The translations under genes were made by a program, and so were the position numbers. A DNA stretch of 62,878 nucleotides, counting the filler, from Candidatus Rokuibacteriota bacterium (GTDB taxonomy: Bacteria; JAUVQV01; DATDCY01), in the NCBI GenBank assembly GCA_031406795.1. It is 7 parts of 7 records of this genome, joined end to end, with 100 filler letters (N's around TTAATTAATTAA, not from the genome) between each part and the next. Parts side by side here need not be neighbours in the genome. Positions count along the whole stretch, not along the records: positions 1 to 24,373 come from JANOHV010000147.1; 6 more parts are not named here. The stretch is one strand, 5' to 3'. Every line of letters starts with the position of its first letter. Positions within the stretch are counted from its first letter, which is position 1. Below, piece by piece: positions 1 to 38,411 of this stretch. The notes under the pieces were generated by a model. The model saw only the letters and a list, made by a program, of their open reading frames with translations, did not search any database and was not told the origin of the DNA.

Positions 1-2
1 GA

Positions 3-299
3 CACACCCTCGACAGCCTGGACTGGGTCGCCGAGCGCTCTTCGCGCAACTACCTGACGTCGGCGCAGATTGCCCGGCGCATCCTCTCCTTCGGGTCGGG
101 CGGGACGGGGCTCAACGGCGGCATTGTCCTGATGCACCTGAGCACCAGCCGCGCGGACCCGGCGGTCATCCGGCTGGGTGAACTCGTCGACGCCCTGCGG
201 GAGAGCGGCTACTCCCTGGTCACCGTCACCGAGCTCCAGCACGATCTCGCGCCGCAGGACGACCCGGTCGCGATCACCGCTGCCGCCGGGGAACGCTGA
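3..299 (+). CDS. Polysaccharide/peptidoglycan deacetylase (NodB family), 3' partial at window edge
   Basis: Frame 3 reads HTLDSLDW...GGIVLMH...LRESGYSLVTVTEL, the NodB C-terminal motifs; stop TGA at 297-299. Confidence 0.8.
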   Translation, partial: HTLDSLDWVAERSSRNYLTSAQIARRILSFGSGGTGLNGGIVLMHLSTSRADPAVIRLGELVDALRESGYSLVTVTELQHDLAPQDDPVAITAAAGER

Positions 300-350
300 G
301 CCGCCCGGTCCGCCGGGGGACCAAATCTGCCGCCGCTCCCGCGCCGCGGG

Positions 351-394
351 TTGACCGCACAGCCGTATCTTGTTAGATTAATGATGGTTTAATC
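351..394 (+). promoter_or_regulatory. Sigma70-type promoter overlapped by a palindromic operator candidate
   Basis: TTGACC (351-356), 17-bp spacer, TGn-TAGATT (374-379); inverted repeat GATTAA-N7-TTAATC at 376-394. Confidence 0.5.
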
Positions 395-478
395 GGGGGA
401 GGAGTGTTTTCGCATGACGGTGCGGCGAGGTCGTACGGCGCGATGATCGCCCGGTTTTCACGCAACCGCGAACAGCGG

Positions 479-1513
479 ATGAAGCGGGAGATCTTCCGCG
501 GGGTCTACGAGGACAACCTGAGCCTGCTCGGGCGCACCTCGCCGCGGGCGTACGTCCGCAGACGCCTGCCCCGGGTCGCCAAGTTCGCGCTCTTCGCGGC
601 GACCCTCGTTCTCGGGATCCTGTTCACGGGCTCCACGCTCTCGCCGGTGTTCTTTCCCGTCCAGCAGATCCAGGCCCGGTTCGTCGCGGAGACGCCGCCT
701 CCAGCCGAGCCCCGGCCGCTGGCCCCGACGCCCGCCCCTGCGGCGACGCCGCAGCCGGGGCTCGACCCCGCGCGCTTCAAGGTCGGGCGCGGGCTGCCGT
801 TGAGCCGCGCGTTCGACCTCGGCGTGAAAACGATCCTGCTCGACCCCGGCCACGGCGGTGAGGACACCGGCGCCATCGGGCGCGGCGGCACGCACGAGAA
901 GGAGATCGCCCTCGACATCGCCCGCCGGCTCAAGCGCCGCCTCGAGTCGCGCACCGACGCCGAGGTGCTGCTGACGCGCGACGCCGACATCACGCTCCCC
1001 CTCGGCGAGCGCGTCGCGATCGCACACGCGAAGCACGCCGACCTGTTCGTCTCGATCCACCTCAACTTCGTGCCGAACAAGCCGATCAACATCATCGAGA
1101 CCTTCTACTTCGGGCCGGGGACCGACGCCGCCTCCCTGGAGCTGGCGCGCCGCGAGAACTCCGGCCAGGGGCCGGGGATGAGCGAGTTGAGCCAGATCAT
1201 CGAGCGTATGGAAACCCAGATGCGCCGCGAGGAGTCGCCGCGTCTCGCCGCCGCGATCCAGAACAGCCTCTACCGCAACAGCCACCGCGCGAATGCGGGC
1301 ATACTCGACTACGGCACCAAGCGCGGCCCCTTCGTCGTGCTCAACCAGGCGGACGTCCCGGCGGTGCTCGCCGAAGTCTCGTGCCTGAGCAACCGCGAGG
1401 AGGAGGAGCGGCTCGGCACGCCGGAGCACCGCGAAGACATCGCCGCCTACCTGGAAACCGGCATACTCGACTATCTGCGCAACGGGGAGACCACGCATGA
1501 GTCCAAAAAATGA
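479..1513 (+). CDS. N-acetylmuramoyl-L-alanine amidase (Amidase_3), membrane anchored
   Basis: LDPGHGGEDTGA, EKEIAL, LFVSIHLN and PAVLAEV Zn-amidase motifs; N-terminal TM segment; start uncertain (404-479). Confidence 0.9.
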   Translation: MKREIFRGVYEDNLSLLGRTSPRAYVRRRLPRVAKFALFAATLVLGILFTGSTLSPVFFPVQQIQARFVAETPPPAEPRPLAPTPAPAATPQPGLDPARFKVGRGLPLSRAFDLGVKTILLDPGHGGEDTGAIGRGGTHEKEIALDIARRLKRRLESRTDAEVLLTRDADITLPLGERVAIAHAKHADLFVSIHLNFVPNKPINIIETFYFGPGTDAASLELARRENSGQGPGMSELSQIIERMETQMRREESPRLAAAIQNSLYRNSHRANAGILDYGTKRGPFVVLNQADVPAVLAEVSCLSNREEEERLGTPEHREDIAAYLETGILDYLRNGETTHESKK

Positions 1514-2510
1514 CGTCCTGTTCGTCGGCATCGACCTCGGCACTTCACGCTCGTCCATCTCCGCCGGCAACGGCCAGCGTCAGTGGATCGAGAGCTACGT
1601 CGGCTGGCCGAAGGACTTCATCGCGGCGCAGGTGGTCGGCAAGCCCGTCGTCTTCGGCAGCGACGTGCTGGAGTACCGGCTCTCCGTCGACGTCTCGCGC
1701 CCGCTGCAGAACGGCATCATCAAGGAGGGGATCAACCGCAATGAGGAGGCGGTCAAGGAGATCATCCGCCACCTGATCGAGCTGGCCGGCCCCTCCGCCG
1801 GCCAGAAGATCCACGCCGTCGTCGGCGTCCCCTCCGACTCGCTGAAGATCAACAAGCTGGCGATCCGCAAGGCGGTCGCCGAGTTCGTCGACTCGCTCGT
1901 CGTGGTCACCGAGCCCTTCGCGGTCGCCTACAGCCTCGGTCTGCTCAACAACGCGCTGGTGATCGACATCGGCGCCGGGACGACCGACCTGTGCATCATG
2001 CACGGGACGCTCCCGGGTGAGGACGACCAGCGCACGCTGCTGCAGGCCGGCGACTACATCGACGACCAGCTCTTCTCCTACCTGCAGGAGCGCTACCCGC
2101 GTTCGACCTTCAACAAGAACATGGTGCGCCTCTGGAAGGAGCAGTACAGCTTCGTCGGCGAGCCGCCCGGGCAGATCATGGTCGAGATGCCGGTCGACGG
2201 CAAGCCGATGCTTCACGACATCACGGCGGACATCAAGCGCGCCTGCGAGAGCATCCTGCCGGCCTTCGTCGAGGCCACCACGCAGATGATCGCCCGCTTC
2301 GACCCGGAGTTCCAGGCCAAGATCCGCAGGAACATCGTGCTCGCCGGCGGGGGCAGCCTGATCGCGGGGATCCGCGAGTACTTCCAGGCGGCGCTCAAGG
2401 AGTACGGCCCGAGCACCGTAACCTGCGTCAACGACCCGCTGTTCGCCGGCTCCGACGGCGCGCTCAAGCTCGCGCAGGAGATGCCCGCGCAATACTGGGA
2501 GAAGCTCTGA
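1497..2510 (+). CDS. MamK-type actin-like ATPase
   Basis: GIDLGTS, DIGAGTTD and LAGGGS actin motifs, plus MamK-like segments VGWPKD, GTLPGEDDQ, KEQYSFVG, VTCVNDP and the C-terminus AQEMPAQYW. Confidence 0.85.
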   Translation: MSPKNDVLFVGIDLGTSRSSISAGNGQRQWIESYVGWPKDFIAAQVVGKPVVFGSDVLEYRLSVDVSRPLQNGIIKEGINRNEEAVKEIIRHLIELAGPSAGQKIHAVVGVPSDSLKINKLAIRKAVAEFVDSLVVVTEPFAVAYSLGLLNNALVIDIGAGTTDLCIMHGTLPGEDDQRTLLQAGDYIDDQLFSYLQERYPRSTFNKNMVRLWKEQYSFVGEPPGQIMVEMPVDGKPMLHDITADIKRACESILPAFVEATTQMIARFDPEFQAKIRRNIVLAGGGSLIAGIREYFQAALKEYGPSTVTCVNDPLFAGSDGALKLAQEMPAQYWEKL

Positions 2511-2974
2511 TGCGGAAAGCCGGGGCGCTCGGCACCGCGGTGTTCCTAGCGCTGGCCCTCGGCGCGTACGGCTGCGGTCTGGTGGATTCGCTGTCCCCGT
2601 TCGGGATCGGCACCCGGGACTACGCGGCGGAGGCTTCGGGCGCGAACCTCAACGGCGTCTGGTCGGGAACGTCCGGGGACGGGGGGACGGTCACCTTTCA
2701 GGTCGGCGACTCCGAAGTGAACGAACTGGTGCTTGTGCACGTGACGGGCGATTGCATCATCAATTTCGATGGCTCGGAGGCCGCGGTCCCCATCGTCGAC
2801 GGGGTGTTCACGATCGAGCGGGGCCTGACGAGCCTGGCACAGGGAAGGATCATCATCACGGGCCGCTTCACCTCATCGAGCACCTGCGTCGGCAATTTCA
2901 CCTACGAAGGGCTCCCGGCGAGTTCCTGCCCGACCAGCGGGGTCGGGTCCTTCCTCGCCGGCAAAGTCTTCTAG
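2510..2974 (+). CDS. Hypothetical lipoprotein, beta-rich
   Basis: Signal peptide ending LGAYGC; TGATG overlap with the upstream gene. Confidence 0.7.
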   Translation: MRKAGALGTAVFLALALGAYGCGLVDSLSPFGIGTRDYAAEASGANLNGVWSGTSGDGGTVTFQVGDSEVNELVLVHVTGDCIINFDGSEAAVPIVDGVFTIERGLTSLAQGRIIITGRFTSSSTCVGNFTYEGLPASSCPTSGVGSFLAGKVF

Positions 2975-3002
2975 CCAGCAGCACCACGCAAAGGGAGCCG
3001 TC

Positions 3003-4016
3003 ATGATCATTGTCCTCAAGCCCGGGGCAACCCAGGCCGAGATCGACCACGTCATCGAGAAGATCCAGGCCGCCGGCTGCAAGCCGCACCTCTCCCGCGG
3101 CGTCGAGCGCACGATCATCGGCGCCATCGGCGACGAGACGGCGCTGCGCAACCTGCCGCTCGAGATCCTCCCCGGGGTCGACCAGGTCCTGCAGATCCAG
3201 AAGCCGTACAAGCTGGTCTCGCGCGAGTTCAAGTCCGAGCCGAGCGTGATCGGCGTCGACGGCGTCCTGCTCGGCGGCAAGCGCCTGCACGTGATGGCCG
3301 GCCCGTGCGCCGTCGAGGGGCGCGAGATGCTGATCGGGATCGCCCGGCAGGTGAAGGCGGCCGGCGCCACCGTGCTGCGCGGCGGCGCCTTCAAGCCGCG
3401 GACCTCGCCCTACGCCTTCCAGGGACTGGAGGCCGAGGGCGTGCGCTACCTGGCCGACGCGCGCGAGGAGACCGGGCTGCTCGTGGCCACCGAGCTGATG
3501 GACCCGCGCGATCTCGAGCTGCTCGACCGCCACGTCGACTTCATCCAGATCGGCGCGCGCAACATGCAGAACTTCCGGCTGCTCAAGGAGTGCGGCAGTA
3601 CGAACAAACCGATCATCCTCAAGCGCGGCCTCTCGGCGACGATCAAGGACCTGCTGCTCTCGGCCGAGTACATCGTCGCGAACGGCAACCCGAACGTCAT
3701 CCTCTGCGAACGCGGCATCCGCACCTTCGAGGACTACACGCGCAACACGCTGGACATCGCCGCGGTGCCGGCGATCAAGTCGCTCTCGCACCTGCCGATC
3801 ATCGTCGACCCGAGCCACGCCGGCGGGCGCCGCGACCTGGTGCGCCCGCTCTCGCTCGCGGCCCTCGCGGCCGGCGCCGACGGGCTGATGATCGAGGTAC
3901 ACCACAACCCCGAGGAAGCCTTCTCCGATGGCCCGCAGAGCCTGCGCCCGGAAGGGTTCGCGGCCCTCATGGACGAACTGCGCCGGCTCGCGACCTTCCT
4001 CGGGAGGGAGCTCTAG
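3003..4016 (+). CDS. aroF: DAHP synthase (type I-beta, N-terminal ACT domain)
   Basis: [27 protein letters not shown] and DPSH motifs. Confidence 0.95.
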
Positions 4017-4044
4017 AACGATGTCCTTGTCCCTGGGACTCCGA

Positions 4045-4102
4045 GGTTGTTCAAAAGGGTTCAGATGCAAGGCCCGCCGCAGGTGAGCCCTTTTCAACGA
4101 CC
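4045..4102. repeat. 58-bp internally deleted copy of the ~120-bp intergenic repeat
   Basis: GGTTGTTCAAAAGGGTTCAGATGCAAGGC...GCAGGTGAGCCCTTTTCAACGACC matches both ends of the copies at 6961 and 57191. Confidence 0.7.
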
Positions 4103-4978
4103 GAGGCTCCTCGTCATCATGGGGCTGGGGCTGATGGGCGGGTCCCTCGCCCGCGCCGTCAAGGCGTCCAACCTGCCCTGGCGCGTCCGGGGGGTGGCCC
4201 GCAACCCGCAGACGCGGCGCGCCGCCCTCGCGTCCGGGGCCGTCGACGAAGCCTGCGCCACGGCGGCCGAGGCGGCGCCGGGCGCCGATCTCGTCGTGAT
4301 CGCCCTGCCCGTCCGCGCCGTCCCCGACGCGGCGCGCGAGCTGGCGCCCCACCTGGCCCCGGGAACCGTCGTCACGGACGTCGGCAGCACGAAGGCCGCC
4401 CTCACCCGCGGCGTCGAGGCGGTGCTCCCCCCCGGCGTCCCGTTCGTCGGCGGCCACCCCATCGCGGGCACCGAAGAGTCCGGCTTCACCGCCTCCTTCG
4501 CCGGTCTGTACCGCGGCGCGCGCTGCCTGCTGACTCCGGGCGCCACCTCGACCCCGGAGGCCGTCGCGACCGTCCGCGGTCTCTGGGAAGGGGTGGGCAT
4601 GCGGGTGGACGTCATGGATGCCGCCGCGCACGACCGCATTCTCGCCGTCATCAGCCACCTGCCCCACGTCGTCGCGTACGCGCTGGTCAACGCCGCGGCG
4701 CAGGCCGACGCCGCTCTGCCCGGGCTGCTATCGTACACGGGCGGCGGCTTTCGCGACTTCACGCGGATCGCGGCCTCGCATCCGGCGATGTGGCGCGACA
4801 TCTGCCTCGACAACCGCGAAGAGGTGCTCCGGGCGCTCGACGAGTTCCTCGCCGAGGCCGGCCGCCTGCGCTCGCTGATCGCCGCCGGCGACGATGCGGG
4901 TCTCGAGGAAGCCTTCGCCGCGGCCCGGGTCGTGCGCCGCTCGCTCGCCCCCGCTGCTCCGCCCGCGGAGGCCCGTCC

Positions 4979-4982
<4 letters not shown>
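4083..4982 (+). CDS. tyrA: Prephenate dehydrogenase
   Basis: GLGLMGGS, TDVGSTK, GGHPIAG, SHLPH and FRDFTRIA motifs; start uncertain (4047, 4065 or 4083). Confidence 0.9.
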
Positions 4983-6288
<1,306 letters not shown>

Positions 6289-37148: not shown

Positions 37149-38411
37149 CTACTTCGCGGGAGCGTCCGGCGGGGGATCCTGCGTCACCTGGAGGCGGCTC
37201 GGCGACGGCGACGCGTCGGGGGCCGCCGGGCGGCAGGCGGCGAGTGCGGGCCGGGAACCGAGATCGAGGTCGTCCGCATTGATGCTTTCGCCGGGAACCA
37301 TCATCACCAGGCGCTCCACGCAGTTGCGCAGCTCGCGGACGTTTCCCGGCCACGGGTGGCTGGTCAAGGCCGCGAGCGCGGCGGGCGAGAACTTCTTCGG
37401 CGCCAGCGCGGCATGGGCGCAGAAGCCGCTCAGGAAATGCCCGGCGAGCAGCGGGATGTCCCCCGCGCGCTCGCGCAGCGGCGGTACGTGCAGCGCGACG
37501 ACGGCGATCCGGTAGAACAGGTCCTCGCGGAAGAGCCCCGCGGCGATCAGCTCCTCGAGGCGGCGGTTCGTGGCGGCGATCACCCGCACGTCGACGCGCA
37601 CCGGCTTGGTGCCGCCGACGCGCTCGAAGCTCTGGCTCTCGAGCACCTTCAGGATCGTGCCCTGCGCGCGCGGCGTCATGTCGCCGATCTCGTCGAAGAA
37701 GAGGGTGCCGCCGTCGGCCAACTCGAACTTGCCCCGGCGCTGGTCCACCGCGCCGGTGAAGGCGCCGCGTTCGTGCCCGAAGAGTTCGCTCTCGACGAGC
37801 TCCCCGGGCAGCGCGGCGCAGTTGATCTCGATGAACGGCCGCAGCCGCCGCGGGGAGTGCACGTGGATCGAGCGCGCCACCAGTTCCTTGCCCGTGCCGT
37901 GTTCGCCGGTGACCAGGACCCGTCCCGCGCCCGCGGCGGCGAGCGCGACCCGCCGGCGCAGTTCGACGATCAGCGGGTCCTCCCCGACGATCTCGACCGC
38001 GGCCTCGGCCTGGCGCAGCAACTCGCTGTTCTCGCGGATCAGGCGGCGCTCCTCGAGGGCGTGGCGCAGCACGAGCAGGGTCTTCTCGAGCGAGAGAGGC
38101 TTCTCGATGAAGTCGTAGGCGCCGAGTTTGGTCGTGCGCACCGCGGTCTCGATGGTGCCGTGACCCGACATCATAACGACCGGGATCGCCGGCCAGCCCT
38201 TCGTGATCTCCTGGAGAATCGCCACGCCGTCGCGTCCCGGCAGCCAGATGTCGAGGAGCACGAGGTCCACGGGCTGTTCGTGCAGCCGCCGCAGCGCGGA
38301 CTCGCCGTCCTCGACGAGCACCGGGCGATAGCCCTCGTCCTCGAGGATGCCCTTGAGCGCGAGCAGGATGCCGCGTTCGTCGTCGACGACGAGGATGGTT
38401 TCAGCTTGCAT
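37149..38411 (-). CDS. Sigma54-dependent response regulator, NtrX-like (no recognisable C-terminal HTH)
   Basis: REC domain (VVDD, LDIWLP), GEHGTGKE, ESELFGHERGAFTGA and WPGNVREL. Confidence 0.9.
   Translation of the reverse strand: MQAETILVVDDERGILLALKGILEDEGYRPVLVEDGESALRRLHEQPVDLVLLDIWLPGRDGVAILQEITKGWPAIPVVMMSGHGTIETAVRTTKLGAYDFIEKPLSLEKTLLVLRHALEERRLIRENSELLRQAEAAVEIVGEDPLIVELRRRVALAAAGAGRVLVTGEHGTGKELVARSIHVHSPRRLRPFIEINCAALPGELVESELFGHERGAFTGAVDQRRGKFELADGGTLFFDEIGDMTPRAQGTILKVLESQSFERVGGTKPVRVDVRVIAATNRRLEELIAAGLFREDLFYRIAVVALHVPPLRERAGDIPLLAGHFLSGFCAHAALAPKKFSPAALAALTSHPWPGNVRELRNCVERLVMMVPGESINADDLDLGSRPALAACRPAAPDASPSPSRLQVTQDPPPDAPAK

Follow-up and report, generated by a model that had tools for sequence, protein, structure and literature searches.

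The window analyzed here is a stretch of 62,878 nucleotides (nt) from the genome of a Candidatus Rokuibacteriota bacterium (GCA_031406795.1), joined from 7 parts of 7 records. Close to its beginning, an actin-like ATPase of the MamK family is encoded directly downstream of a putative bitopic N-acetylmuramoyl-L-alanine amidase of the Amidase_3 type. Our survey of related loci shows that these two genes, and only these two, are a conserved unit. We consider it fairly probable that they constitute a module connecting the cytoskeleton to the cell wall, in which a MamK-type filament holds the amidase by its cytoplasmic helix and thereby localizes or gates the removal of stem peptides. An earlier note on this DNA had proposed a cytoskeletal module for wall remodeling. 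From this proposal the MamK-type actin, its link to the amidase, the setting outside of magnetosomes and, at the level of a structural model, the contact between both proteins are retained, whereas the membership of a NodB-type deacetylase and of a lipoprotein is not.

Relatives of the window actin are numerous. Among 8000 sequences scored, 6062 matched at E <= 0.001; most of them are metagenomic and some carry the names 'MamK family actin-like protein' or 'MreB'. A first set of loci comprised the best 80 of 309 stretches encoding an actin relative in species-representative genomes. Searches by tblastn with the window proteins located the amidase gene directly upstream and on the same strand in 78 of these 80 loci. 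In the remaining 2 (L033 and L070), the contig ends 92 and 60 nt ahead of the actin start, so that the upstream side is cut off. A second set of 35 loci was seeded with the copy from Desulfobulbus, and here the amidase was found upstream in all 31 loci sharing at least 54% identity with the window actin. No amidase was located upstream of two MamK-like proteins of this set with 42% identity, which are encoded in a Planctomycetota metagenome-assembled genome (MAG; L155) and in a MAG labeled 'archaeon' (L156), or with two MreB-like matches of 26% identity. The association of actin and amidase noticed earlier in the window is thus conserved far beyond chance.

According to their labels, the carriers belong to Rokubacteria, Nitrospirota, Thermodesulfobacteriota, Acidobacteriota/Aminicenantes, as well as Alpha-, Beta- (Azoarcus) and Gammaproteobacteria, and represent at least six phyla. 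The closest locus (L001, from a Candidatus Rokubacteria MAG) has the same gene order as the window and encodes an actin, an amidase, and a 3-deoxy-D-arabino-heptulosonate 7-phosphate (DAHP) synthase with 96%, 84%, and 86% identity, respectively, which indicates that the window stems from a related Rokubacteria organism. At least two carriers apparently are not metagenome bins, namely Delta proteobacterium NaphS2 (L134) and Thermodesulfobacteriota bacterium B35 (L139). In the literature searched, with supplementary files outside the search, the pairing of an amidase with a MamK-like protein was not described, including the parts available of PMC10653835, PMC11929497, and PMC7203096, and it appears to be new to this literature.

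One locus, L121, was dismissed as a case of a module-type actin without amidase. Its amidase is present in two separate open reading frames (ORFs; L121:736-1970), which were missed by a 150-residue filter. Interrupted frames were also observed in L001, where the actin lies in two frames near residue 312 (L001:6935-7012) and the NodB ORF (3748-4890) continues into another frame, and in L158, a second contig of the alphaproteobacterial MAG of L142, whose module copy has the actin in four pieces. The frame breaks in L001, L121, and L158 may be indel errors of long reads or may mark decaying copies.

ORFs of the window were taken from a six-frame listing, and the gene junctions were read directly from the sequence. 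The actin start codon ATG is located 17 nt ahead of the amidase stop, with GGGGAG upstream of it, and the actin stop and the start of the following lipoprotein-like ORF have one base in common (CTCTGATGCGG). Both overlaps given in the earlier note, 17 bp between amidase and actin and TGATG between actin and lipoprotein, were borne out at these junctions as 17 nt and 1 nt. Translation of the actin gene would be coupled to that of the amidase gene.

By its sequence, the window actin is a member of the MamK family and not of MreB. It scored 406.6 bits against the NCBIfam MamK model NF040964 over model positions 1-330 of 335, which is barely above the cut-off of 400, and relatives from 5 other genomes scored 419-425 bits. 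The corresponding values were 200 bits for the NCBIfam BeeR model (cut-off 530), 61-77 bits for the MreB models (PRK13927, 76.7 with a cut-off of 293; TIGR00904, 62.8 with a cut-off of 365.75), and 18.7 bits for FtsA (TIGR01174). Pfam assigned only the generic families MreB_Mbl and Actin. In the PDB, MamK of M. magneticum AMB-1 (5jyg, 5ljv, and 5ljw) was matched with 304-307 bits in a gapless alignment of residues 6-337, with about 42% identity by a hand count on the alignment; BeeR (8r2n) reached 143 bits and MreB 48-55 bits. The residues of the nucleotide-binding motifs (D13, G15, D157, G159-G161, G284, and G286) are invariant in 52 relatives. An MreB paralogue was ruled out by the family scores together with the phylogenetic tree, in which the protein was not placed with MreB, and the assignment to the MamK type made in the earlier note is confirmed in this way.

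Module actins share 54-100% identity with each other (median 65%), 45% with Nitrospirota MamK, 41% with alphaproteobacterial MamK, and 25% with MreB; Nitrospirota and alphaproteobacterial MamK are 37% identical. Phylogenies without Desulfobacterota magnetosome MamK, Mad28, and BeeR sequences were computed as a quick IQ-TREE (78 rows, LG+C20) and as a careful tree of 41 rows, consisting of 22 of the 59 module rows, hand-picked across clades, and all 19 others. In the quick tree, the 59 module rows formed one clade (support by the SH-like approximate likelihood-ratio test, SH-aLRT, 96), which was the sister of the Nitrospirota MamKs (100). In the careful tree, support was 86/96 for the module clade and 98/100 for the group of module and Nitrospirota MamKs. 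Rooting with MreB placed the alphaproteobacterial MamKs at the base and the module inside the magnetosome MamKs, and the module would therefore derive from magnetosome MamK under this rooting. The branch on which the MreB root sits has a length of about 4, in changes per site, however, and a tree holding all magnetosome MamKs together was not rejected in the approximately unbiased (AU) test (p-AU 0.157). Hence, either the module or the magnetosome function may have come first, and these trees do not decide on the ancestral role of MamK considered in the earlier note. Phyla are mixed inside the module clade, for example with Acidobacteriota and Thermodesulfobacteriota rows in a Nitrospirota group and the window beside Nitrospirota copies, and this mixing of sequences suggests a lateral spread of the module.

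The position next to magnetosome proteins raises the question of whether the module belongs to a magnetotactic organism or to a descendant of one, with the actin still organizing an organelle. This would agree with a score above the NCBIfam MamK cut-off and with the sister relation to the Nitrospirota magnetosome MamKs, but not with the gene content around the actin. Its neighbors in the window are the amidase gene, the lipoprotein gene, and aro genes, and not a magnetosome cluster. In the rest of the window, tblastn revealed no match to mreB or mreC. Nor, with one weak exception, did it reveal genes like the neighbors of mamK and mamP in magnetotactic bacteria, which were taken from 23 loci and from within about 1.5-2 kb of either gene. 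The statement of the earlier note that mreC and other mam genes are lacking is upheld to this extent. The exception, on the minus strand at 38040-38306, is a 93-aa match with 31% identity (E 9e-8) to an ORF bordering a Nitrospirota magnetosome mamK locus (L094) and probably represents a generic domain.

Genome-wide comparisons likewise separate module and magnetosome. In the genome of L001 (G001), which served as a proxy, MamP reached 19 bits only, and MamI and magnetochrome were not matched. As a control, the MamP model was applied to the order to which the Nitrospirota carrier G002 belongs, and it matched 25 of 317 genomes there. A MamK-family match was obtained in 100 of these 317 genomes, and the scores fell into two modes. 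MamP was present in 23 of the 27 genomes with 455-507 bits; in five genomes of this mode that were inspected, mamK was located about 2-3 kb from mamP and no second copy was found. In contrast, none of the 69 genomes with 402-441 bits had MamP. Amidase adjacency among these 69 was checked in G002, G008, and G130. The order of the alphaproteobacterial carrier G003, from which 401 genomes were sampled, contained 37 genomes with 472-549 bits and 4 with 418-433 bits, and all of these 4 were amidase-linked.

No genome among the 317 and 401, which are mostly incomplete MAGs, had both a magnetosome-type (455-549 bits) and a module-type copy (402-441 bits); this may be due to lineage sorting or to real exclusion. 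Magnetosome mamK loci showed no amidase in the flanks fetched, and the module is strongly conserved in many non-magnetotactic lineages. A magnetosome remnant or accessory is highly improbable in view of these data, and the non-magnetosome setting assumed in the earlier note stands, as far as the proxy genome represents that of the window.

Next to the module, the 5 carrier genomes checked (G001, G002, G003, G004, and G006) all encode a separate MreB, whose gene in G001 lies about 114 kb from the module, together with one or more additional Amidase_3 proteins of better score, and FtsA is present in 4 of them. Therefore, the module is an addition to the standard machinery and not a replacement for it. 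An intact set of MreB, FtsA, and a second amidase is also what would be expected if the module were a morphogenetic add-on, that is, a device for shape or multicellularity whose filament would arrange the amidase along a curve or bring it to a pole, a stalk, or the septal junctions, just as bactofilin places LmdC or AmiC2 drills septal pores in Nostoc. The patchy distribution (69 of the 317 genomes in the order of G002, 4 of the 401 sampled in that of G003) and the mixture of phyla in the tree fit such a device as well. The SPOR proteins encoded with the module in other lineages point first to septal amidase sites, though, and a specialized role of this kind seems quite unlikely to us.

The amidase ORF matched Pfam Amidase_3 (PF01520) with 147.8 bits in residues 144-354 of the ORF read from GTG, where 211 residues face 172 profile positions. 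Although a GGAGG is found ahead of this GTG, its distance is only 1-4 nt, and homologs begin to align at residue 13/14 of the GTG ORF, which makes the ATG at 443 the more probable start. Amidase residues are numbered from this ATG in the following. Alignments comprised 85 ORFs, 52 of which have complete N-termini (alignment A1). They revealed a uniform layout of a cytoplasmic motif, a variable basic stretch, a hydrophobic helix, a variable Pro-rich linker, and a well-conserved catalytic domain. The tail motif has the consensus RxKxxILRGVYEENL, which reads EIFRGVYEDNL in the window, and its N25 is invariant in 52 of 52 rows. A strict pattern of the motif matched 58 of the 85 ORFs and overlooked variants with YD or YK and sequences cut short by the end of a contig. 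In the AlphaFold2 model (mean predicted local distance difference test score, pLDDT, 79), a helix at residues 2-28 and the membrane helix at 44-63 were followed by a segment of low confidence (66-116) and a confidently modeled catalytic domain.

The catalytic domain resembles that of AmiA, AmiB, and AmiC. These proteins (AmiB as AmiB-EnvC) were the top Foldseek matches, and the amidase aligned with E. coli AmiA (8c2o) and AmiC (4bin) in one stretch that runs through an insertion of about 40 residues, while amidases lacking the insertion (5emi and 1jwq) aligned in two stretches or in the first half only. Helices 229-239 and 248-283 of the model fall into this region. Invariant in the 52 rows are H137, E152, H206, and E311, which we take to be the zinc ligands and the catalytic Glu, and, inside the insertion, E238 and N239. 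In AmiB and AmiC, the corresponding insertion has an auto-inhibitory role and blocks the active site until an activator acts. Equivalog scores remained below the cut-offs (given in brackets) for AmiA with 124 (400), AmiC with 106 (700), and AmiB with 79 (532). The N-terminus consists of the cytoplasmic helix and one membrane helix and contains neither an AMIN domain nor a Tat or Sec signal. Alignments and model thus point to a bitopic amidase with a catalytic domain of the AmiA/B/C type that has kept the regulatory insertion.

A contact between tail motif and actin is predicted by co-folding of the actin (alignment A2) with tail residues 1-47 of the amidase (alignment A1). The scores were 0.77, 0.77, and 0.79, compared with 0.01 for the best of 3 controls; the runs agreed in at least 61% of the contacts, and the partner had a pLDDT of at least 63. 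Among solved complexes, 58 of 80 reach the mark applied, as do 2 of 110 mismatched pairs, a rough calibration only, as alignments of our own were used. Contacts involve tail residues 10, 13-14, 16-26, and 28-29, which is the conserved motif, and actin residues 120-121, 124, 134-137, 145, 150-151, 170-172, 325, 328-330, 333, and 335. Judging from the positions of the actin-fold motifs, the latter would border the cleft that separates the two halves of the actin, beside the C-terminal helix. Positions 121, 124, and 151 of the cleft are module-specific. At position 124, 81 of 84 module actins have R or K, as opposed to L in 22 of 26 magnetosome MamKs, and the basic residue would suit the acidic EE/ED of the tail motif. 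A co-fold of the actin with the cytoplasmic N-terminus of the amidase had been named as a check in the earlier note, and the model obtained is in favor of a direct contact.

Additional hints to the biological context come from the gene downstream of the actin. Among 7 loci tested from Nitrospirota and Thermodesulfobacteriota, 6 have a third gene for a protein with receiver and SPOR domains. The seventh, on a Nitrospirota chromosome (L061:7021-7776), encodes a receiver and PilZ protein, which hints at an input of cyclic di-GMP into the module in some lineages. No conserved third gene was found in other lineages. SPOR domains bind the denuded glycans made by amidases, as stated in the parts available of two papers (PMC6895207 and PMC7822825).

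These partners could also be taken as part of an accessory loop resembling the divisome. Here, the actin would correspond to FtsA and the amidase tail, elsewhere also the receiver-SPOR protein, to the cytoplasmic peptide of FtsN, and the state of the filament would license the periplasmic amidase allosterically. SPOR partners in 6 of the 7 loci, the predicted position of the tail in a conserved cleft, and an AmiA/B/C-type insertion with invariant E238 and N239 are in line with such a loop. Between membrane helix and catalytic domain, however, lies a flexible linker of about 55 residues modeled with low confidence, which makes a direct allosteric transmission unlikely. Furthermore, FtsA itself is present in 4 of 5 carrier genomes, and no LytM-type activator was linked to the module in the loci read. 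On balance we regard allosteric licensing of this type as rather unlikely.

We favor a filament that holds and positions the amidase. The actin would polymerize on the cytoplasmic face of the membrane and is predicted to capture the amidase helix in a cleft made up of strand 134-137, residues 145-151 and 170-172, and the C-terminal helix. In this way the filament would determine the place or the time at which stem peptides are removed from the wall. This would most probably occur during septum splitting or another local remodeling step, beside the ordinary MreB, FtsA, and AmiC machinery. The septum is the simplest site because the SPOR partners of other lineages point to places of amidase action.

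Several observations weigh against this interpretation. The window has no SPOR partner of the kind found in other lineages, so that the septal part rests on relatives. The co-fold score is a confidence of the model and not a measurement, and the predicted pocket is largely common to magnetosome MamKs, which share Y145, L150, G170, L325, P330, and Y333. In actin-like proteins this cleft also serves contacts between filament subunits, and ParR binds to ParM there; hence, the tail could cap or regulate the filament, by binding to its ends or by influencing assembly, instead of binding along its sides. Magnetosome genes were sought with three families in a proxy genome, that of L001, whose amidase and actin are 84% and 96% identical to those of the window. 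Nearly all carriers are uncultured, and the presence of the module therefore cannot be correlated with phenotype or morphology.

To our knowledge, only few bacterial actins have a known job, namely MreB, FtsA, ParM-like proteins, and MamK. If the filament indeed holds a wall hydrolase directly, this would be a new way for cytoplasmic polymers to control the wall and would provide a function for MamK relatives of non-magnetic bacteria. The module also bears on the origin of the magnetosome cytoskeleton. In a wider and more tentative view, which seems possible to us without being likely, the amidase-linked actins are a widespread and so far undescribed cytoskeleton that holds an amidase by its tail, magnetosome MamK is a specialized offshoot of it (or the reverse), and the primary job of the MamK family is the cutting of the wall. 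The direct hold of the hydrolase by the filament can readily be tested, since the module is small, the predicted contact comes down to single residues (N25 and the YEEN core of the tail, R124 of the actin), and at least two of the carriers apparently are not metagenome bins.

The genes flanking the module in the window (Table 1) are not part of the conserved unit. The 98-aa fragment at its upstream side had no Pfam match of its own, but it matches the C-terminus of the L001 ORF 3748..4890, which is located upstream of the amidase and is assigned to Polysacc_deac_1 with 111.7 bits. The NodB-type deacetylase reported in the earlier note is therefore upheld by homology. Its gene was found upstream of the module in only 1 of the 80 loci, and in the window a gap of 104 nt separates it from the amidase gene. 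This gap holds the sole sigma-70-like site in positions 1..4200, where shuffled sequences contain 0.2 on average. The deacetylase was rejected as a member of the module on the basis of this single locus and of the promoter-like site in between. A neighborhood survey for amidase plus deacetylase, as suggested in the earlier note, turned out positive for the amidase (78 of 80 and 31 of 31) and negative for the deacetylase (1 of 80). According to the parts available of a 2025 paper (PMC12440217), a peptidoglycan deacetylase modulates daughter-cell separation in E. coli together with amidases. The upstream NodB gene could be a local functional companion of the module, even though it is unconserved.

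No Pfam or NCBIfam family was assigned to the lipoprotein-like ORF, which is neither a SPOR nor a PilZ protein. Its nearest Atlas clusters were unnamed proteins of 153-160 aa, with weak lipocalin-like leads at 0.83. Among the 80 loci a counterpart was found in L001 only (42% identity), and this gene, whose overlap with the actin gene is described in the earlier note, was likewise rejected as a member. In this Rokubacteria lineage, the NodB gene and the lipoprotein gene have been added locally to the module. Further downstream, the tyrA/aroA-like region (4001-6000) has a G+C content of up to 75%, as compared with 58-73% elsewhere, and contains very long spurious ORFs in several frames.

Table 1. 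Coordinates of the amidase-actin module, its parts, and neighboring features in the window
Feature	Position	Strand	Evidence and remarks
NodB-type polysaccharide deacetylase gene, 3'-end (98-aa ORF, open at the 5'-end)	3..299	+	Homology to L001 ORF; neighbor, outside the conserved module
Promoter-like site, TTGACC, 17 nt, TAGATT, with TG ahead	351..379	+	NodB-amidase gap; consensus match only
Putative bitopic N-acetylmuramoyl-L-alanine amidase (Amidase_3), ORF	404..1513	+	GTG at 404; likely start is ATG at 443
Amidase cytoplasmic helix with conserved motif, in the window EQRMKREIFRGVYEDNLSLL	470..529	+	Residues 10-29; predicted docking onto actin
Amidase predicted transmembrane helix, followed by disordered Pro-rich linker	572..631	+	Residues 44-63; AlphaFold2 model and hydrophobic stretch in alignment
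Amidase periplasmic Amidase_3 catalytic domain with AmiA/B/C-type insertion	833..1465	+	Pfam, alignment, Foldseek
MamK-family actin-like ATPase, 337 aa, intact	1497..2510	+	NCBIfam, Pfam, and PDB matches; clade of amidase-linked actins
Lipoprotein-like ORF, 154 aa, lineage-specific third gene	2510..2974	+	1-nt overlap with actin stop
aroF-like DAHP synthase	3003..4016	+	Pfam DAHP_synth_1, 262 bits
tyrA-, aroA-, and cmk-like ORFs	4047..4982 and beyond	+	Read from translations only

Among known systems, magnetosome MamK has the family score, the gapless alignment, the nucleotide-binding motifs, and most residues of the cleft in common with the window actin. The module actins differ from it by an identity of only 41-45%, by a clade of their own, by their position adjacent to an amidase and never beside mam genes, and by NF040964 scores that form a lower mode (402-441 as compared with 455-549 bits). 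The MamK-like proteins of L155 and L156, at 42% identity, are unlike the module actins in that they have no upstream amidase. Another MamK relative of non-magnetotactic bacteria is BeeR from Verrucomicrobiota, which is described as 25-30% identical to MamK and of unknown function, and the word 'amidase' does not occur in the parts available of that paper (PMC11929497). BeeR thus resembles the module actin in its occurrence outside of magnetotactic bacteria but is more distant, as the window actin stays well below the cut-off of the BeeR model.

The FtsA-FtsN-AmiA/B/C system of E. coli likewise involves an actin-fold protein at the inner face of the membrane and a bitopic protein that touches it with a short cytoplasmic peptide, a contact which for the module is predicted. 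The periplasmic output is amidase action in both cases and is carried out by a catalytic domain of the same regulated AmiA/B/C type. SPOR domains read this output in E. coli, and a SPOR protein is encoded by the third gene in many module loci. In contrast to E. coli, the amidase of the module itself bears the cytoplasmic peptide and the membrane anchor, and the actin is of the MamK type and not FtsA.

In the ParM-ParR system of plasmid R1, a short helical peptide of ParR is held in the cleft between the halves of ParM. The amidase helix is predicted in what appears to be the equivalent cleft, as deduced from motif positions. Unlike ParM-ParR, the module has no DNA-binding partner, is chromosomal with aro genes downstream, and has a membrane enzyme as the partner of the actin. 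In Hyphomonas neptunium and Rhodospirillum rubrum, the bactofilin BacA is encoded beside the bitopic M23 peptidase LmdC, whose cytoplasmic tail binds the polymer and thereby localizes wall cleavage. The arrangement of a polymer and an adjacent bitopic hydrolase is the same in the module, which differs from BacA-LmdC in its polymer, an actin, in its enzyme, an Amidase_3 protein instead of an M23 endopeptidase, and in the taxa in which it is found.

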